64,000 nucleotides of DNA from Candidatus Doudnabacteria bacterium (GCA_037200925.1 JBBCGO010000001.1:317248-381247); one strand, 5' to 3'; numbered from the stretch's first letter, positions 38,040-49,476 are shown. The notes: generated by a model from the sequence alone, not told the origin. Numbers and translations are program-made.

Positions 38040-38354
38040 GTGATTGATCCTACTGAGGAGACCATCCTGGCGATCACCGTATATTTGAAAAGACAACGCG
38101 CTATCTTTGAAACAATGAGCCAAGGCCTGGATGAAAATGCAAACCTATTCAAGGAAACCCTTGCCCAGATAGATGAGGCCATCGCCCATCTGCAGGCTGG
38201 CGCTTTTTCTCGGACAATCAGTCTATTAGAGGAACAACGTCACATTACCTCGAAGATAAATTTAAACACGATCGAAAAAGATGAGGTCAACAGAGTAGTG
38301 TTTAAACTGCTGGACGAATGGCTCAGAGTTCTTAAAAAACAGATCCAGTCATAA
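38040..38354 (+). CDS. hypothetical protein (104 aa), islet 1 gene 1
   Basis: GTG start 10 nt after AAGGAGGA; helical; no recognisable domain. Confidence 0.5.
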   Translation: MIDPTEETILAITVYLKRQRAIFETMSQGLDENANLFKETLAQIDEAIAHLQAGAFSRTISLLEEQRHITSKINLNTIEKDEVNRVVFKLLDEWLRVLKKQIQS

Positions 38355-38395
38355 GCTAAGTTTCTGGAATAATCGGGTCAAAAAGGAGGGCTTAA

Positions 38396-38788
38396 TTGCC
38401 CAAGAACATACGACCGCGGGTGAACCGGCTGGCCCGAAACAAGCAAGACGACAAACTTAGCTTTGTGATCAAAGAGGTCGAAGAATATGTGAGAGCCAGG
38501 ATCAAGTTGCATACAAAGGCAGCTCGGCGAAAAGGCGATAAGCTCTTGGCTCAAATTTTTCTGGTCCAAGACAAAAATGCCCTGAAATATTTGAACACGG
38601 GGCATCTGCCGAAAGTAGTTCAATTCCTGGCCGACGAACAGGAACTGTGCCGGGAGTTGGCCAAGAGCGCCCGCGAGGTAATGAAAGAGTTGCCGCGAGC
38701 CCAGCTCCTGGTACAAATCCGTGAGGCCCAGATCGAAGCTGAAATGGTCGGTCAGTGGATCAAGGTTCTTTCCAAACAACAGCGATGA
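38396..38788 (+). CDS. hypothetical protein (130 aa), islet 1 gene 2
   Basis: TTG start after AAAGGAGGG; basic helical protein. Confidence 0.5.
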   Translation: MPKNIRPRVNRLARNKQDDKLSFVIKEVEEYVRARIKLHTKAARRKGDKLLAQIFLVQDKNALKYLNTGHLPKVVQFLADEQELCRELAKSAREVMKELPRAQLLVQIREAQIEAEMVGQWIKVLSKQQR

Positions 38789-38890
38789 TCTGCCAAGATC
38801 AGCTGCCCCGCCCGCCCAAGCTAAATGCTGCTGCGGGTTCTTTTTTTATACAAAAAAATGATATACTGGAGGCCAAACAAGGAGGAGGAT

Positions 38891-39337
38891 GTGAAATACA
38901 TGATAGGACTCTTCCGAAGACTGCGTGCTTTGATGCCCGGCAGAAAAGACTGGTATCTAGGAACTTGGGGGCCTGATGTTTGCAAAGGTACGTGGAACTT
39001 TGACAACGGACGAGCCGTAATATTCGAACTTACTCCGCTCATATCCGTGGCTCGCTACCATACCCAAAGGGAAGCCGAGGATATAGCGTTGTATCTCAAT
39101 CAGGTAAATTTTTGCATTGTGCGGCCGGACAAAAGCATCTACGACGCGCCTGTGAGGATGCTGACCCTTTCGCCTGAAAACGACAGGTGGAACAAAATGG
39201 CTCTGGGCATCGCAGACAAGAAAACGCACGCTTGGCCGTTTGATTCCATCATAGGAGGACCGAATGAAGATCGAGCTCAACCTTTCGATAAGGGTGACGC
39301 AACAAATCCAAACGCTTCCTCTGATCAGGCGGTTTAG
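38891..39337 (+). CDS. hypothetical protein (about 148 aa), islet 1 gene 3
   Basis: Track ORF 38825-39337 trimmed to the GTG at 38891 (or ATG at 38900) preceded by AAGGAGGAGG. Overlaps the next gene by 74 nt. Confidence 0.45.
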   Translation: MKYMIGLFRRLRALMPGRKDWYLGTWGPDVCKGTWNFDNGRAVIFELTPLISVARYHTQREAEDIALYLNQVNFCIVRPDKSIYDAPVRMLTLSPENDRWNKMALGIADKKTHAWPFDSIIGGPNEDRAQPFDKGDATNPNASSDQAV

Positions 39338-39554
39338 GAAAAAGATCGAGATCGACCTGCCCGAGGGAGCCACGGTCGCGGATGTGAAGCTCGGACCAAA
39401 CAACGAGATCCGCGTCTCAATAAATGCCGATGGGATTGTCAACGAAGCCAGTTTCTGGAAGCTGGATCTTGATTGGCAACCGAACGGTCTGGCTTACACC
39501 AAGCAGATGGCACGGCCTATTGATCCGGAAGCCTGGCGCGCGGCCGTGGACTAA
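39264..39554 (+). CDS. hypothetical protein (96 aa), islet 1 gene 4
   Basis: ATG preceded by TAGGAGGA. Confidence 0.5.
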   Translation: MKIELNLSIRVTQQIQTLPLIRRFRKKIEIDLPEGATVADVKLGPNNEIRVSINADGIVNEASFWKLDLDWQPNGLAYTKQMARPIDPEAWRAAVD

Positions 39555-39572
39555 TGATTATCCGGAGGAGAC

Positions 39573-39791
39573 ATGAACAGACTGACCCGCTCAGAACGCT
39601 CAATCGGTCTGCGGCAGGCTCAACAGTCGAACCCGGAGCATTTCGCCGCCAAGTTCGAACTCGAACAGAACTATCGCAAAAAAGTCAGGAACGGTAAGCT
39701 GGTTCTGCTTGCGATCGTTGTTGTGGTTGTCTGGTGGCCTGATATCTTCAGATCAATAAGCCGGATCATGCACATGGTCGCTCGCAACTGA
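39573..39791 (+). CDS. hypothetical small membrane protein (72 aa), islet 1 gene 5
   Basis: SD GGAGGAG; one TM helix LVLLAIVVVVVWW. Confidence 0.45.
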   Translation: MNRLTRSERSIGLRQAQQSNPEHFAAKFELEQNYRKKVRNGKLVLLAIVVVVVWWPDIFRSISRIMHMVARN

Positions 39792-39817
39792 CGACCTGCC
39801 GCGAGGAGGAAAACTCC

Positions 39818-39955
39818 GTGTACTACCCGTCCCGATTCGACCGCTTCATCGTGCGCTTGGCCTACTGGGCCGGATGGCTCACTGATGTGGACAAAGAACT
39901 GGTGCAAGCCTTTCTGAACTCGCCCAGACACCCGCCCAAACTCACGCCAAAGTGA
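39818..39955 (+). CDS. hypothetical small protein (45 aa), islet 1 gene 6
   Basis: GTG 39818 preceded by GAGGAGGA at 8 nt; VYYPSRFDRFIVRLAYWAGWLTDVDKELVQAF... Confidence 0.3.
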   Translation: MYYPSRFDRFIVRLAYWAGWLTDVDKELVQAFLNSPRHPPKLTPK

Positions 39956-40002
39956 ATTTGGGTCTTTTTTTTGCTCATGACTTTGCTGCTGAGCATTATC
40001 TG

Positions 40003-42179: not shown

Positions 42180-42665
42180 TTACCTTCGTTGGAATCTTGC
42201 AAAATGAGCGAAGGCTTTGTTCGCTTCCGCCATCTTATGCACGTCTTCGCGCTTTTTGATGGCTGCGCCCTGCTTGTTGTAGGCTTCCATCAATTCCGTG
42301 GCCAGTTTTTCGGCCATGGGCTTTCCTTTTTTGGCGCGGGCCGCATCAATCACCCATTTCATGCCGAGCGTGGTTTTGCGCGGCTCCTGCACTTCCATCG
42401 GCACCTGATAATTGGCTCCGCCGATGCGGCGGCCCTTGACTTCAACCATCGGCGACACGTTGCGGATAGCCTGCTCAAAAACAGTTTTCGGATCCGCCTT
42501 CATATCAGTTTCAATTTTATCCATCGCGCCGTAAACCACTTTTGAAGCCACGGTCTTTTTGCCGCGGGTCATGACATAGTTAATGAACTTCGCGATCTTC
42601 ACGCTATTGTATTTGTTATCCGCCGTGACCGGATGTTTTTTATAGCTTCTTGCTTTCCTAGGCAT
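42180..42665 (-). CDS. rpsG: 30S ribosomal protein S7
   Basis: Start trimmed to MPRKARSYKKHP. Confidence 0.9.
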   Translation of the reverse strand: MPRKARSYKKHPVTADNKYNSVKIAKFINYVMTRGKKTVASKVVYGAMDKIETDMKADPKTVFEQAIRNVSPMVEVKGRRIGGANYQVPMEVQEPRKTTLGMKWVIDAARAKKGKPMAEKLATELMEAYNKQGAAIKKREDVHKMAEANKAFAHFARFQRR

Positions 42666-42666
42666 A

Positions 42667-43083
42667 CTATTCGGTCCTCTTCGCTCCGTACTTTGACCGG
42701 CCTTGCTTGCGGCCTTCCACTCCGGAGGCATCCAGTTTTCCGCGGACAATGTGATATCGAACGCCTGGTAAATCCTTCACGCGGCCGCCGCGGATCATGA
42801 CCACTGAGTGCTCCTGCAAATTATGGCCGATACCCGGGATATAGGCCGTGACTTCCATGCCGTTTGATAATCTAACGCGCGCGATCTTCCGCAAAGCCGA
42901 GTTTGGCTTTTTCGGCGTGGTGGTGGTGACTTTGATGCAAACTCCGCGCTTAAAAGGCGAACCCTTTGGCAAAGAATAAGGACTCCCTTGGAGCAGGTTA
43001 AAGCCGCGGTCCAGGGCCGGGGTTTTGGATTTATAAACTGATTTGGTTCGTCCTTTCCGGACAAGTTGATTTACTGTAGGCAT
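42667..43083 (-). CDS. rpsL: 30S ribosomal protein S12 (with approximately 13-aa insertion after ...SKTPAL)
   Basis: [12 protein letters not shown]...[16 protein letters not shown]...; the extra segment is [17 protein letters not shown]. Confidence 0.9.
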
Positions 43084-43340
43084 GTCGTCGCAATTGGTCG
43101 AACCTTCGCAATTTTGCTTTGCAAAATATGCTACGGTCGACGTATTGCTCCTCTCGAAAAAATTGTTCTCGACGCTTCGCGTCTGCGACTCAATTTTTTC
43201 GTAATATTAATTTAGTTAAATTCGGCAAATTAAAACGGCTCATTAGCCGTTGTTGCAACTCAAAACAACGAATTTAATTACTGGCAAATCCTAACAAGTT
43301 TTTGAAGGTGTGTCAACAAATAAAGCAAAAAATCTGGCAA

Positions 43341-43369
43341 TTGACAAACTAAACATTTTATGCTAAAAT
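43341..43369 (+). promoter_or_regulatory. sigma70-type promoter for islet 2
   Basis: TTGACA-17 nt-TAAAAT. Confidence 0.55.
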
Positions 43370-43432
43370 AATAAGTTGGCAATACTGTCAACCTGTGATG
43401 TGCACAGCGATGTGTGCTTAGAGGAGAACAGT

Positions 43433-43603
43433 GTGGCGAAACCAAGTAAGAAAAAGGTCTGGACGAATCGAGAGATCTTTGAAGCCGCTCAATTCAAGGC
43501 TCTCAAAGTTCTAGATAAATCGCGCCGGCAAAAACTGAGGCCCGATCCGATCGACGATGAGCCTCAACTGAGTCTCGGCCTCGGTATCCATCTCAAGCGT
43601 TAG
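43433..43603 (+). CDS. hypothetical small basic protein (56 aa), islet 2
   Basis: GTG start 6 nt after GAGGAG; VAKPSKKKVWTNREIFEAAQFKALKVL...; stop lies 4 nt before the next gene. Confidence 0.4.
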   Translation: MAKPSKKKVWTNREIFEAAQFKALKVLDKSRRQKLRPDPIDDEPQLSLGLGIHLKR

Positions 43604-43607
43604 GAGA

Positions 43608-43925
43608 ATGATGGCTGCCAAACGGATCGAGAACTACAAACTTGGGAACATAGCGAACTTCGACAGATTGAAAAACACAGGCATTATCACACCCGAGATT
43701 GACGGTTGCAAACTGCAGTTCAGTTTCGAGAGTATCGCCCAACCGAGATTTGAAAACGGCATCATCGTCTGCCGTGGTCTAGTGCAGCCGATAAATCACA
43801 GGCGACCCAGGATCGGAGAGCAGATTCTCTATCTGACATCAGGCAATCGGCGCCCGGAGGTCATATCCTGGATAACCCTCACCGACGTCGGCAAGCTTGT
43901 CTGGCAAGAGGGGGCAACATCATAG
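43608..43925 (+). CDS. hypothetical protein (105 aa), islet 2
   Basis: SD AGGAGA; no recognisable domain. Confidence 0.45.
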   Translation: MMAAKRIENYKLGNIANFDRLKNTGIITPEIDGCKLQFSFESIAQPRFENGIIVCRGLVQPINHRRPRIGEQILYLTSGNRRPEVISWITLTDVGKLVWQEGATS

Positions 43926-44036
43926 TATAACGTTCGCAGAAATTGGCAAGATCGCCTGGGAGAAGTCTTGCGGACAATACAACATGGCAACTCGCAATAA
44001 CGAGTAGCTGACAGGAGGATGAACGAAAACTACAAA

Positions 44037-44076
44037 GGCGAGTTTGCATTAATGCAAACTCGCCTATTCTTTTTGT
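44037..44076 (+). terminator. intrinsic terminator
   Basis: GGCGAGTTTGCA-ttaa-TGCAAACTCGCC followed by TATTCTTTTTGT. Confidence 0.7.
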
Positions 44077-44092
44077 TCGAAAATTTGCGGCA

Positions 44093-44121
44093 TTGACGGG
44101 AACGAAAAAAAATGATAGAAA
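44093..44121 (+). promoter_or_regulatory. candidate promoter
   Basis: TTGACG-17 nt-TAGAAA. Confidence 0.35.
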
Positions 44122-44169
44122 AAATGCATTGTTCTCATCTAGCCATTTTCAACTGACCAAGGGGGGAAA

Positions 44170-44655
44170 ATGTCAGGGCAACCGAAACTTGCGGACGGCA
44201 TTGAGCATGGCAAAGTGAAATTCTTCACCAGCACCGGAGGCAGGAACTTCGGGTTCATCACACGCATCGGCAAACCTGATCTCCACTTCCATCACGACTT
44301 AGGTACTGCTTGGACATGCGTTAACGGCGAATTCTGTTTCGCAGGCAGGCACTGCAATCTGCCGAGCAGATTTGCCAAGCAGCATGACGATATCTATTTT
44401 ATCGAAGGCCGGACCAAGAAAGGCCCGACCGCCGCTCCCTGGGCCCTTGGCGAGGACCTCGATCGGTTGATCAAAGCGCGAAGCAGAAACACGGTCACCA
44501 ACACCGGCACAGAGGCCATCCGTCGGCCGCGCGAGCCCGTGACCTCAGAAGACCGTTTCGAAACCGGCGACGACTTTGTCGATCGGATCGATCGAATAGA
44601 AGGTCGCAGAGCCACGGACAGGATGTTGTCGCGAATGCTTCACGATGATGACTGA
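44170..44655 (+). CDS. cold-shock-domain-like protein with charged C-terminal extension (161 aa)
   Basis: GKVKFFTSTGGRNFGFI...DLHFHHD...IYFIEGRTKKGPTAAPWAL resembles the CSD pattern (GxVKWFNxxKGFGFI...VHF...GP.A.NV). Confidence 0.45.
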   Translation: MSGQPKLADGIEHGKVKFFTSTGGRNFGFITRIGKPDLHFHHDLGTAWTCVNGEFCFAGRHCNLPSRFAKQHDDIYFIEGRTKKGPTAAPWALGEDLDRLIKARSRNTVTNTGTEAIRRPREPVTSEDRFETGDDFVDRIDRIEGRRATDRMLSRMLHDDD

Positions 44656-44685
44656 ATCGGCAACGATTTGGAAGATAAAAAACAA

Positions 44686-44726
44686 AGGCGCCCGGTCATA
44701 AAAGACCCGGACGCCTCTTCTTTTTG
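44686..44726 (+). terminator. intrinsic terminator
   Basis: AGGCGCCCGG-tcataaaaga-CCCGGACGCCT followed by CTTCTTTTT. Confidence 0.55.
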
Positions 44727-44729
44727 CCA

Positions 44730-44758
44730 TTGACTTATAGCTCCAATAAGTCTAGAAT
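44730..44758 (+). promoter_or_regulatory. sigma70-type promoter
   Basis: TTGACT-17 nt-TAGAAT. Confidence 0.5.
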
Positions 44759-44783
44759 TATCTCCTCACAACAGGAGGATGAA

Positions 44784-45335
44784 ATGTACAAGGCTGGTAC
44801 GATCACGCTTGTCGCGCCAAGCCTTGGAACGGCTTTGGCAGTCAATGGCGGAGAAAAATGGCTTGTTCAGCAGAACCGCAGAGGTCAGTTTATACAAGGA
44901 CTGGAACAACCCGAACTGACTGAATCTTCGGCGGAAACTAGGCAACGTCTGCCGATACGGTCTGAGGTCATTTATTTCATTGAGGATGAGAATGACCCTG
45001 CTGCGGTAAAGCTGTGGGCCACAAAACAGGACTACCTGGACATAGAAGAAATCATTCGGCAGCGAAAAGAATCAGACCAGCAGAAAGAAGAAATGGCGTC
45101 TCGGCCCAAGATCCGTGTCATGGAGCAACTCATCGAGCGAGGTATCCTGATCGGTGAGGCGAAACCGGTCATAAACGAAATATTCCTTGATGACTTTCTC
45201 AGGCAATATTCGATCATCAGACGCCACGATACGTTCGCTACATCAGGCGATTTTTATCAAACCCGCAAACGCTGGTTTGAACAACTAACGCCGGAAGGCT
45301 GGGTTCAAACTCCGGACCCGCGCCGGAAGTTATAA
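44784..45335 (+). CDS. hypothetical protein (183 aa), islet 2
   Basis: ATG preceded by AGGAGG; MYKAGTITLVAPSLGTALAVNGGEKW...; no recognisable domain. Confidence 0.45.
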   Translation: MYKAGTITLVAPSLGTALAVNGGEKWLVQQNRRGQFIQGLEQPELTESSAETRQRLPIRSEVIYFIEDENDPAAVKLWATKQDYLDIEEIIRQRKESDQQKEEMASRPKIRVMEQLIERGILIGEAKPVINEIFLDDFLRQYSIIRRHDTFATSGDFYQTRKRWFEQLTPEGWVQTPDPRRKL

Positions 45336-45337
45336 CA

Positions 45338-45376
45338 CGGCGAGTTTGCGCAGCGCGCTAGCTCGCCTCTTTTTTA
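45338..45376. terminator. GC-rich hairpin plus T8; its 5' arm matches the terminator at 44037
   Basis: GGCGAGTTTGCgcagcgcgctagCTCGCC followed by TCTTTTTT. Confidence 0.55.
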
Positions 45377-46030
45377 TTAAAAACCCAGCGGCGCGTTGGG
45401 ACCCAGCAAAAATTTCAGGAAAAAAACCAGCGGCGGCAGAACTATGCTTTGCAAAACACCTGTATACAGCAATATGGCCAAAACCGCGAACAGCCAAATG
45501 CCAAACCGCTCCAAGGATAAAATAGCGTACATCCATGCTTCATTAAAATAACCTAAAATGCTCGCTAAAACTTTGGAACCGTCCAGAGGCGGAACCGGGA
45601 TGAGATTAAAAAAACAAAGCACTAAATTCAAGCTCACGGTTTCTATCAGCAGATCTTGCCCCATTGCGGAAATATTCGGCACCAGCCTGAAAACTGCGGC
45701 CGCCAAAATTGCCAGCAAAAAATTCGTAGCTACGCCCGCAATTGCGACCAAAAACATATCACGCTTAAGATTTTTGAAATTCCTGTAATCCACCGGCACC
45801 GGCTTGGCCGCACCGAACACGAACATACCGTGAGTGGCCCAAAACAAAAATAGAGGCAGTAAAATTGAGCCGAACGGATCTATGTGCGGTATGGGATTAA
45901 GGGTCAGCCGTCCTGCTTCACGCGCAGTCGGGTCCCCCAGTTTTTCCGCCACCAAACCATGCGCGACTTCATGAAAGATCACGGAGAACAGCAAGATCAA
46001 AATAAATATGATGATCGAGATCGGGTCCAT
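45377..46030 (-). CDS. M50-family (site-2 protease-like) membrane metalloprotease
   Basis: HEVAHGLVAEKLGDPTAREAGRLTLNPIPHIDPFG. Confidence 0.8.
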   Translation of the reverse strand: MDPISIIIFILILLFSVIFHEVAHGLVAEKLGDPTAREAGRLTLNPIPHIDPFGSILLPLFLFWATHGMFVFGAAKPVPVDYRNFKNLKRDMFLVAIAGVATNFLLAILAAAVFRLVPNISAMGQDLLIETVSLNLVLCFFNLIPVPPLDGSKVLASILGYFNEAWMYAILSLERFGIWLFAVLAILLYTGVLQSIVLPPLVFFLKFLLGPNAPLGF

Positions 46031-46121
46031 ATGACTTGATAAATTCCTTTTATTATGCTAACCTTAACCAGTGCTTATTCATCATAAGCATTATTTATTT
46101 CTTTAACAAGTGGAGCATTTT

Positions 46122-46313
46122 ATGGCAAGAGTTTGCGAAATTTGCGGCAAAGGCTATCTCGCCACGTTTACGCGGTCCCATTCCATGCGCAAGACCAAGG
46201 TCCGGCTCTATCCCAATCTCCAACGGTTGACCTTGGATCACGGCAAGAGGGTCAAGGCTTGTACCAAATGTATCAAGACGCACAACCGTAAAATGGTGGC
46301 AGTCGCCGTATAA
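46122..46313 (+). CDS. rpmB: 50S ribosomal protein L28
   Basis: MARVCEICGKGYLATFTRSHSMRKTKVRLYPNLQ; SD GTGGAG. Confidence 0.8.
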   Translation: MARVCEICGKGYLATFTRSHSMRKTKVRLYPNLQRLTLDHGKRVKACTKCIKTHNRKMVAVAV

Positions 46314-46346
46314 AAAATCCCCGTCAAATGACCGGGGATTTTTTGT
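46314..46346. terminator. bidirectional terminator between rpmB (+) and mscL (-)
   Basis: AAAAAATCCCCG-tcaaatgac-CGGGGATTTTTTG. Confidence 0.65.
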
Positions 46347-46733
46347 TTAGCTTAATTGCGAGGTGCAGTTCGGGCAGCGTGTGGCTTTCAGTGCTATCGG
46401 CGTGATACAGAACGGACATTCTTTCGTATTCGGGACGTCTTTAGGTACACGGCTCAAACGGTTGAACTGCTTGATCACCAAAAATACGGCAAATGCCACA
46501 ATGAAAAAATTTATAAGCGCATTCAGGAAAGATCCGAAAGCCAATGAATGGTGAAAAAATACCAATTTTAAATTGGCAAAATAAATATGCCCGGTGAATA
46601 TACTTATGATCGGATTGATGATATCGGTAACCAAAGAGTTGACCACTTGGCCAAAAGCCGCCCCGATCACTACGCCGACCGCCAGTTCTAAGGCGCTGCC
46701 TCTGATTGCGAATTCCTTAAATTCTTTCCACAT
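46347..46733 (-). CDS. mscL: large-conductance mechanosensitive channel MscL with C-terminal zinc ribbon
   Basis: MWKEFKEFAIRGSALELAVGVVIGAAFGQVVNSLV...; tail CPFCITPIALKATRCPNCTSQLS. Confidence 0.8.
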   Translation of the reverse strand: MWKEFKEFAIRGSALELAVGVVIGAAFGQVVNSLVTDIINPIISIFTGHIYFANLKLVFFHHSLAFGSFLNALINFFIVAFAVFLVIKQFNRLSRVPKDVPNTKECPFCITPIALKATRCPNCTSQLS

Positions 46734-48812: not shown

Positions 48813-48992
48813 CTATAATAGACAAATATAAAAAAGAAGCCCGAAGATTGCTCTTCAGGCTATATGGTGGCACGAATTTCCGCGATTGTGCGGATAGGCG
48901 GACAAACTTTCTCCTGCTCATCGGCGCGGCGCTGCTGGGGTACTGGACGATCATCTGTTCGGCGAGTTTGCTCAGACATGGCTCTCTGTCCT

Positions 48993-49250
48993 TTATGTTG
49001 CGGAGCGGGCTGTGATCCGGAAGATTTTGACTAGTTCGTTGCGGCGTCCGTACCGGAAGCTTTGTTCCGTGTAGATACAAAGTTCCGGCGGAAAGCAAGT
49101 CGCATACACGCTTCTCTCCTCTGCCCGGATCAATGCCTCGTTCTCTGATACGGCAAGTTTGTACCCTGTATAGTCCCTTCCGAGACCGATTAGTTCGCGC
49201 ATGTCCTTCTCCGCGCTAGACGCCATGACCATAGCCCTTCGGGTGCTCAT
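48993..49250 (-). CDS. hypothetical protein (85 aa) in GC-rich segment next to tRNA-Pro
   Basis: GC-rich codon usage; overlaps 49216-49476 in another frame. Confidence 0.3.
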   Translation of the reverse strand: MSTRRAMVMASSAEKDMRELIGLGRDYTGYKLAVSENEALIRAEERSVYATCFPPELCIYTEQSFRYGRRNELVKIFRITARSAT

Positions 49251-49476
49251 CCGGTTTTCTGGTCAGCTGAGCCGAAAGAAAGACCTGTCCGGGTGCTCCC
49301 TGCAGCACTGCGGCTATCCTGTTCGCGGCGGCGCGCTGCGCTGCGAGAGTGCGAGTCAACGCCTGTTTACGGAACTCCGGCACTCTCGGATTGTTCAGGC
49401 GGGCCTGGATTCCGATGATATTGGCCTCGATCCGGGTATACCTGGCCATGACCGGACAATGCGGCATATCGTGCAT
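49216..49476 (-). CDS. hypothetical protein (86 aa) in GC-rich segment
   Basis: MHDMPHCPVMARYTRIEANIIGIQARLNNPRVPEFRKQ...; no recognisable domain. Confidence 0.3.
   Translation of the reverse strand: MHDMPHCPVMARYTRIEANIIGIQARLNNPRVPEFRKQALTRTLAAQRAAANRIAAVLQGAPGQVFLSAQLTRKPDEHPKGYGHGV

Follow-up and report, generated by a model that had tools for sequence, protein, structure and literature searches.

What occupies the space between the str operon and the neighboring M50 peptidase gene in Candidatus Doudnabacteria, and where might the small genes found there have come from? The question is raised by a stretch of 64,000 nucleotides (nt) from a Candidatus Doudnabacteria bacterium (GCA_037200925.1 JBBCGO010000001.1:317248-381247), hereinafter called the window, with positions counted from its first letter. 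In the window's ORF list, the minus-strand rpsL (42667-43083), which is the first gene of rpsL-rpsG-fusA, and the minus-strand M50 peptidase gene (45377-46030) enclose four open reading frames (ORFs) on the plus strand, and the region adjoins the str operon. The four are 1a (43436-43603; 55 to 56 amino acids [aa], with a GTG start after GAGGAG), 1b (43608-43925; 105 aa, or 104 aa from the second ATG at 43611 that NCBI takes as the start), P2 (44170-44655; 161 aa), and P3 (44784-45335; 183 aa). Their products are residue-for-residue identical to WDN47_02145 (1a) through WDN47_02160, all listed by NCBI as hypothetical proteins of the Candidatus Doudnabacteria metagenome-assembled genome GCA_037975565.1.

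The reading that we favor, with a probability of roughly 0.6, is that the region is a lineage-specific tandem array of two small gene families from a narrow Doudnabacteria clade. The first family would be a highly divergent cold-shock domain (CSD) protein, with P2 as its clear member and 1b as a probable degenerate second copy, and the second a family of ~180 to 200 aa typified by P3, each gene having its own predicted sigma-70-type promoter, Shine-Dalgarno site, and intrinsic terminator. The original prediction had divided the four ORFs into three self-contained promoter-gene-terminator units (1a with 1b, P2, and P3). This division was confirmed, the promoters and terminators being predictions, and the same terminator-promoter-ribosome-binding site (RBS) layout recurs around homologs in other genomes. 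The units would accordingly be expressed as three monocistronic or bicistronic transcripts.

A divergent cold-shock protein and the P3 family

Unit 2 had been proposed to encode a CSD-like protein, and both profile comparisons and a bridging homolog bear this out. A profile built from P2 and its homolog P0002 (54% identity) aligned with strands 1 to 3 of five canonical cold-shock proteins, namely, CspA, CspE, Bacillus subtilis CspB, and the Csps of Thermotoga maritima and B. caldolyticus (hhalign Prob 94%, E 9e-8). The bridging protein (101 aa), encoded at L092:1062-1364 in a related locus beside a distant P3 homolog, matches P2 by BLASTP (E 3e-6) and the CSD hidden Markov model (HMM) over both halves of the domain (E 5e-8). 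Once the P2 family was extended by this protein, the alignment covered CSD positions 4 to 63 (hhalign Prob 97%, E 1e-10), and the homology of P2 at the profile level spans the whole CSD, strands 1 to 5. None of 2,000 shuffled sequences reached the score of P2 against the CSD HMM, and conversely the P2-family HMM, run against 16,607 ORFs, found canonical csp genes in unrelated loci (E ~4e-8). In the PDB, the top matches of the P2-P0002 profile were all cold-shock proteins, and those of a further profile, A9, were exclusively CSD proteins, Y-box CSDs among them. By these comparisons, P2 is a real but very divergent CSD missed by standard annotation. The family is tiny, with only two to three known members.

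Like the bacterial Csps (CspA/CspB, PF00313), P2 aligns with the whole CSD over its N-terminal ~90 residues (the domain occupying residues ~12 to 100), with a GxVKxF motif, an RNP1-like (R)NFGFI, DLHFHH at the RNP2 position, and a C-terminal I-Y-F-I-E...KGP-x-A. It is also a small, single-domain protein whose gene appears monocistronic, with its own predicted promoter and terminator. P2, known from sequence alone, differs from the Csps in falling below the Pfam cut-off, in a 2-residue insertion before RNP1 (R-N-F-G-F-I for the canonical K-G-F-G-F-I) and another of ~18 residues between strands 3 and 4, and in an RNP2 position (L-H-F-H-H for V-F-V-H-F) where His stands in for some of the aromatics. 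The domain is followed by a conserved WALGEDL helix. Since the RNP1-like FGFI motif and a His/aromatic-rich RNP2 position are kept, P2 most likely binds single-stranded RNA or DNA.

Beyond the helix, residues ~105 to 161 form a charged Arg/Asp/Glu-rich tail. A CSD followed by a long tail is reminiscent of eukaryotic Y-box proteins; the P2 tail, however, is unrelated to theirs in sequence, and its 55 residues are missing from both P0002 and the L092:1062-1364 protein, suggesting a recent, genome-specific extension. Within the tail, a GATC-rich palindromic stretch at 44577-44600, TCGATCGGATCGATCGAATAGA, encodes the repeat DRIDRIE, which suggests that the tail grew via small internal duplications.

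P3 belongs to a very small uncharacterized family. A search of 5.8 billion proteins returned three homologs with 53 to 60% identity, and 1.84 billion cluster representatives, searched exhaustively with a profile, yielded only five clusters at E <= 0.001; two scans of metagenome contigs with P3 alignments gave no match. No relative was found in Pfam, PHROGs, NCBIfam, or the PDB, and no enzymatic or effector domain was detected. The ratio of nonsynonymous to synonymous substitution rates (dN/dS) among close members is 0.18 to 0.31, compared with 0.07 to 0.09 for M50 and rpsL between the window and the related locus L003, and on these substitution patterns P3 is a real gene under purifying selection. 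P2 also evolves faster than its neighbors, with a dN of 0.445; between the same two genomes, M50 has a dN of 0.176 and rpsL one of 0.057. The similarity of P3 itself to the CSD was not significant; its residues 22 to 92 show collinear similarity to P2 residues 14 to 105 (hhalign E 0.023, 0.07, and 0.0045; BLASTP E 0.29).

When the four proteins were scanned against Pfam, PHROGs, NCBIfam, and PADLOC, the only matches were the subthreshold CSD of P2 and a Cas8g match of P3 that was judged spurious and discarded. No credible Rfam family was found in 42600-46400.

Recurrent signals in a variable slot

Homologs of P2 and P3 occupy the same position in relatives. P0002 is the sole gene between rpsL and M50, both again on the minus strand, in GCA_023246005.1 (L003) and other contigs, and the P3 homologs P0004, P0005, and P0006 are each the sole gene of this rpsL/M50 slot in L005 to L009. 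More distant P3 homologs (28 to 30% identity) tend to lie next to CSD-like genes. P0012 (L092) stands between a 101-aa ORF and the CSD-like gene L092:1062-1364, the latter converging on an M50 gene; a near-canonical CSD gene, truncated where the contig ends, comes after P0013 (L093); and P0011 (L091) is followed by a 31-aa fragment that is CSD-like by eye only. The two families thus tend to travel together. P0010 (L090) is instead preceded by a second P3-like gene; the two tandem genes, at L090:2-760 and 917-1456 of one short contig, the first with a C-terminal extension like that of P0013, indicate that the P3 family also duplicates locally.

Across a wider set, the slot is highly variable. 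When the M50 protein was used to scan the GTDB species representatives, M50 and rpsL proved to be neighbors in 20 Doudnabacteria-like genomes, separated by 130 to 3,591 bp. The ORFs in these gaps are mostly unrelated, with families shared between close pairs only, and no P2- or P3-like gene was found in the slots of the 20 genomes. A canonical csp gene (L051:5328-5570; CSD HMM score 78 bits) is found in a more distant Doudnabacteria locus, where it lies immediately upstream of M50 in divergent orientation, on the side away from the slot.

Several of the signals around the genes recur in relatives. The three promoters with a 17-nt spacer described originally are present. A consensus -35/-10 scan (maximum score 12) found two of them, the predicted unit-1 promoter P1 at 43341-43369 (TTGACA-17-TAAAAT, TG-extended; 11/12) and the predicted unit-3 promoter at 44730-44758 (TTGACT-17-TAGAAT; 10/12). 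The predicted unit-2 promoter at 44093-44121 (TTGACG-17-TAGAAA, with a TGn-extended -10) was read from the sequence and not reported by the scan, which demanded T at the last -10 position, because that base is A. The 5-kb region has 12 promoter-like sites versus 5.6 +/- 2.1 in shuffled sequences. Among them, the predicted rpsL promoter, on the minus strand at 43288-43316 (TTGACA-17-TAGGAT, TG-extended; found by the scan), stands back-to-back with P1.

This back-to-back arrangement (window 43225-43370, L003:4005-4120, L006:1145-1230) is shared with relatives. L003, L006, L008, and L009 all retain the leader and promoter of rpsL, and in these four the rpsL -35 box and that of the plus-strand slot promoter overlap on opposite strands (TTGTCAAAC); in the window, a 31-nt insertion parts the rpsL and unit-1 -35 boxes. 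The gene that comes first in the slot of L003, L006, and L008 has a promoter that aligns with the unit-1 promoter, and in relatives the RBS and ATG of this first gene line up with the RBS and GTG start of 1a. Similarly, the unit-3 promoter, RBS, and first P3 codons are conserved before the P3 homolog of L009, where a remnant of the unit-2 terminator tail precedes the P3 promoter. The rpsL leader also holds a conserved hairpin, AACGGCTAATGAGCCGTT (minus strand, 43234-43251).

An intrinsic terminator had likewise been proposed for each unit, and all three predicted hairpins fold far better than shuffled sequences, with T-runs after them. T1 (44036-44065; -22.3 kcal/mol, z -5.8) is the strongest terminator in the region. 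T2 (44687-44725) comprises a bulged GC-rich hairpin (44687-44715, z -3.3) followed by TCTTCTTTTT. T3 (45339-45375; hairpin 45339-45367, z -3.0) has the form GGCGAGTTTGC...CTCGCC plus a T-run and abuts the M50 stop codon. The 11-mer arm GGCGAGTTTGC is exact at 44037 in T1 and at 45339 in T3, and the T2 flanks AAAACAAAGGCG and CGCCTCTTCTTTTTG are common to T1 and the L003 terminator. A hairpin GGCGAG(TTT)...(AAA)CTCGCC with a T-run stands beside the M50 stop codon in the window, L003, L005/6, L008, and L009, whatever gene precedes it, and T1 is a further copy of this M50-proximal hairpin.

T1 is itself part of a longer 3' module of unit 1 (44000-44075), composed of an RBS-like AGGAGG, an A-rich spacer, the 13-bp hairpin GGCGAGTTTGCAT/ATGCAAACTCGCC, and a T-run. 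Thirteen nucleotides of it, ACAGGAGGATGAA, are identical to the P3 RBS region at 44771-44783. More generally, one ~55-nt module, made up of an RBS-like (A/T)GGA(G/A)GA, an A-rich spacer, and AAAGGCG-hairpin-CGCCT, aligns between the segments after 1b, P2, P0002 (L003:4538-4618), and the first P3-like gene of L090 (L090:755-835); over 54 nt, the window copy and L090:765-815 share 76% identity. The L090 copy is without a T-run, and the module may therefore be more than a terminator. In the window, the three terminator tails are spaced 651 and 652 nt apart. The shared arm, the shared module, and the orthologous hairpins of relatives all support the common origin that had been suggested for the terminators, the three of which look like copies of one module, and the simplest reading of these copies would be local duplication and deletion between repeated modules.

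Two other readings of these segments were set aside. That 44011-44036 might be the scar of a deleted P3 copy, in which a terminator had become joined to the RBS and start of P3, is weakened because the same module stands behind other genes in L003 and L090. Integron attC-like hairpins were dropped, there being no integrase, a T-run after each hairpin, and no R'/R'' consensus. A third copy of GGCGAGTTTGC is found outside the region at 48961-48971, ~20 nt into a possible minus-strand ORF (ATG 48990-48988) and on the low-coordinate flank of a stretch with locally high GC (peak 0.58 around 49000-49400).

The origin of unit 1 and the competing explanations

The 4-nt gap reported between 1a and 1b is correct. 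The layout is that of a bicistronic unit, with the Shine-Dalgarno site of 1b overlapping the 1a stop codon and with one predicted promoter and one predicted terminator. Both ORFs are singletons. 1b had no homolog but itself among 5.8 billion proteins; 1a was sought only in the fetched loci of relatives, four family libraries, and the PDB, with no wide protein-database search, and none was found. By tblastn in the fetched loci, full-length matches to 1a and 1b were restricted to L001 and L002, which are the source genome, and there was none in relatives; nor did either protein match anything in Pfam, NCBIfam, PADLOC, PHROGs, or the PDB. The rpsL-M50 gap of another Patescibacteria genome has, outside any long ORF, a weak tblastn match to the C-terminal part of 1b (L014:6734-6856; 44% over 41 aa), which could be a pseudogene remnant or chance.

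At the profile level, 1b shows a weak, collinear similarity to the CSD (hhalign E 0.008; 14 of 2,000 shuffles; permutation p 0.005), the alignment reading GNIANF..KNTGIITPE..KLQFSF...ILYLTSGNRRPEV. Against the P2 profile, 79 residues align nearly without gaps and with the same insertion length (hhalign E 0.077; p 0.012), and the shuffle and permutation tests overall gave p values of 0.005 to 0.015. The 3' flank of 1b is homologous to those of P2 and P0002. From the weak collinear similarity, the shared 3' module, and the tandem position, we rate it as probable, though unproven, that 1b is a degenerate P2 paralog.

Unit 1 would on this account have arisen by duplication, 1a and 1b being young, poorly constrained ORFs that are either neofunctionalized or decaying. 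For the array as a whole, the terminators and part of the promoter/RBS segments would be mutual copies, lying in a fast-turnover slot bounded by the putative bidirectional promoter of rpsL and by the 3' end of M50. Such a slot would evolve through local duplication, deletion, and rapid divergence, with no import of mobile DNA, leaving relatives with P2 or P3 alone, with the two together, with other genes, or with an empty slot. P3, recurring as it does beside CSD-like genes, may act with P2 or on the same targets, each also occurring alone.

Several results weigh against the tandem-array reading. P2 scores 11 bits (E 0.42) against the Pfam CSD, short of the 27-bit gathering threshold, and P0002 (19.8 bits, E 7e-4) remains under the same cut-off. 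The PDB scores of profile A9 are inflated because it included the near-canonical CSD fragment of L093. AlphaFold2 models were unusable both for P2 (two-sequence alignment; mean predicted local distance difference test score [pLDDT] 38.8, the low-confidence model having five short strands and then helices) and for P3 (four sequences; pLDDT 45.7). Against the CSD HMM, 1b ranked 10th among all window ORFs (E 6, not significant), and a negative control in its permutation test reached p 0.05. Column-permutation tests of the P3-P2 similarity were not significant (p 0.036 and 0.1). The distant P3 contexts come from contigs of only 1 to 1.7 kb. Finally, an obligate partnership is weakened by genomes in which P3 or the CSD gene is present without the other.

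A tentative alternative to a functional unit 1, which we would put below even odds while taking it seriously, is that 1a and 1b have no function, being either what is left of a duplicated unit in decay or ORFs that exist by chance in a transcribed spacer. In addition to their being singletons, their codon scores (-0.018 for 1a and 0.028 for 1b) are below the 5th percentile of true genes and within the range of spurious ORFs, and the aromatic binding residues of RNP1 and RNP2 are mostly lost in 1b. Furthermore, the G5 run at 43906-43910 is G4 in L002 (Logan SRR28211699, a second assembly of the same population), so that 1b there becomes a 131-aa protein (P0009); the difference may reflect either misassembly of the homopolymer or true heterogeneity. 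Opposing this, the annotated frame is the best of six by codon score for both ORFs, and real genes such as rpmB score as low; both ORFs are preceded by Shine-Dalgarno sites; and unit 1 keeps a near-consensus promoter together with the strongest terminator of the region.

An unlikely extension of the association between the two families is that P2 and P3 function together as a two-gene module, such as an RNA-binding protein paired with a rapidly diversifying partner or effector, perhaps engaged in conflicts with phages or hosts. Their adjacency in the window, L092, L093, and probably L091, despite a P3 identity of only 28 to 30%, would fit such a module, as would the rapid evolution of both genes relative to their neighbors, the tandem paralogs (L090, and 1b in the window), and a weak match of P2 to the PADLOC CSD model (E 0.039). 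That match, however, reflects the CSD motif only. Moreover, each gene occurs alone in complete slots (P2-like in L003; P3-like in L006, L008, and L009), the gene order varies, promoters and terminators are separate, and P3 is without a detected enzymatic or effector domain. A bolder version seems improbable to us: the CSD and P3 genes would form an undescribed, rapidly diversifying, RNA-targeting two-gene module of ultra-small bacteria of the candidate phyla radiation, placed beside the strong str-operon promoter and perhaps serving defense or host interaction, its size changing by recombination between the ~55-nt hairpin modules and 1a/1b being its newest derivative.

It is also quite improbable, even slightly more so, that the region is a horizontally acquired accessory or mobile islet inserted beside the str operon. 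The original prediction had spoken of accessory DNA on both sides of rpsL-rpsG-fusA. The variability of the slot, whose content differs strongly among Doudnabacteria, agrees with that description, as do the orphan-like genes and a second plus-strand block that interrupts fusA-tuf. The remainder does not: several related species have P2 and P3 homologs in this very position, with the signals flanking them conserved, and the GC content (0.41 to 0.56) is like that of the surroundings. No integrase or transposase, tRNA, or flanking direct repeat was found in the region, and neither the phage tblastn with 1b and P3 nor the scan of viral contigs with the P2 family gave a match. Among the hallmarks of a genomic island, patchy presence in relatives was thus observed, while a deviant composition, mobility genes, repeats, and a tRNA target were lacking. 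Nor are these conserved housekeeping genes, an outcome that would have refuted the original prediction. Homologs in the same slot and the lack of mobile signals together point to lineage-specific, vertically inherited DNA shaped by local duplication and deletion, which is neither islet nor housekeeping.

As for the other plus-strand block, "islet 1" (38040-39960, between fusA and tuf), it has about six ORFs (104, 130, ~145, 96, 72, and 45 aa) with gene-like codon usage, none of them matched in the locus of any relative. Between fusA and tuf, there are 2,230 bp in the window versus 690 to 770 bp in L012, L016, and L039.

Least probable of all is the suggestion that 1a and 1b make up a pair resembling type II toxin-antitoxin modules, with 1a, small and basic, neutralizing 1b and autorepressing P1: it is a reading from layout (two short ORFs of the expected sizes, 56 and 105 aa, 4 nt apart, with the 1b Shine-Dalgarno site overlapping the 1a stop codon and one promoter and terminator, in a lineage whose related genome L003 has typical toxin-antitoxin genes, YafQ and PIN, elsewhere), whereas the two proteins, known from sequence alone, match no toxin, antitoxin, or other family and have no detectable DNA-binding domain, the pairing is conserved nowhere known, 1b having no homolog and the pair matching nothing in the loci of relatives, a frameshifting G-run variant exists in the population or its assembly, and 1b rather resembles a degenerate copy of the CSD gene with the same 3' module.

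Gene turnover beside the str operon

Among known systems, the tandem array comes closest to clusters of tandem csp paralogs and other small-gene arrays, with which it shares repeated promoter-gene-terminator units in one orientation, homologous terminators, and gain and loss of units between relatives. It differs in that its proteins have diverged almost beyond recognition and in that the unrelated, or barely related, P3 is interleaved with them.

For annotation, the analysis would place three of the four hypothetical proteins: P2 as a far-diverged CSD protein, 1b as its probable degenerate copy, and P3 as a member of a tiny, clade-restricted, CSD-associated family. The case is a modest one of gene-family turnover and implies no new mechanism or kind of system. 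For the reduced genomes of Doudnabacteria, it suggests that the junction between the str operon and M50 is a hotspot for the duplication, loss, and remodeling of small genes. There, promoter and terminator modules would outlast the turnover of the genes that they serve, and the locus may be regarded as a compact natural example of orphan-gene turnover.

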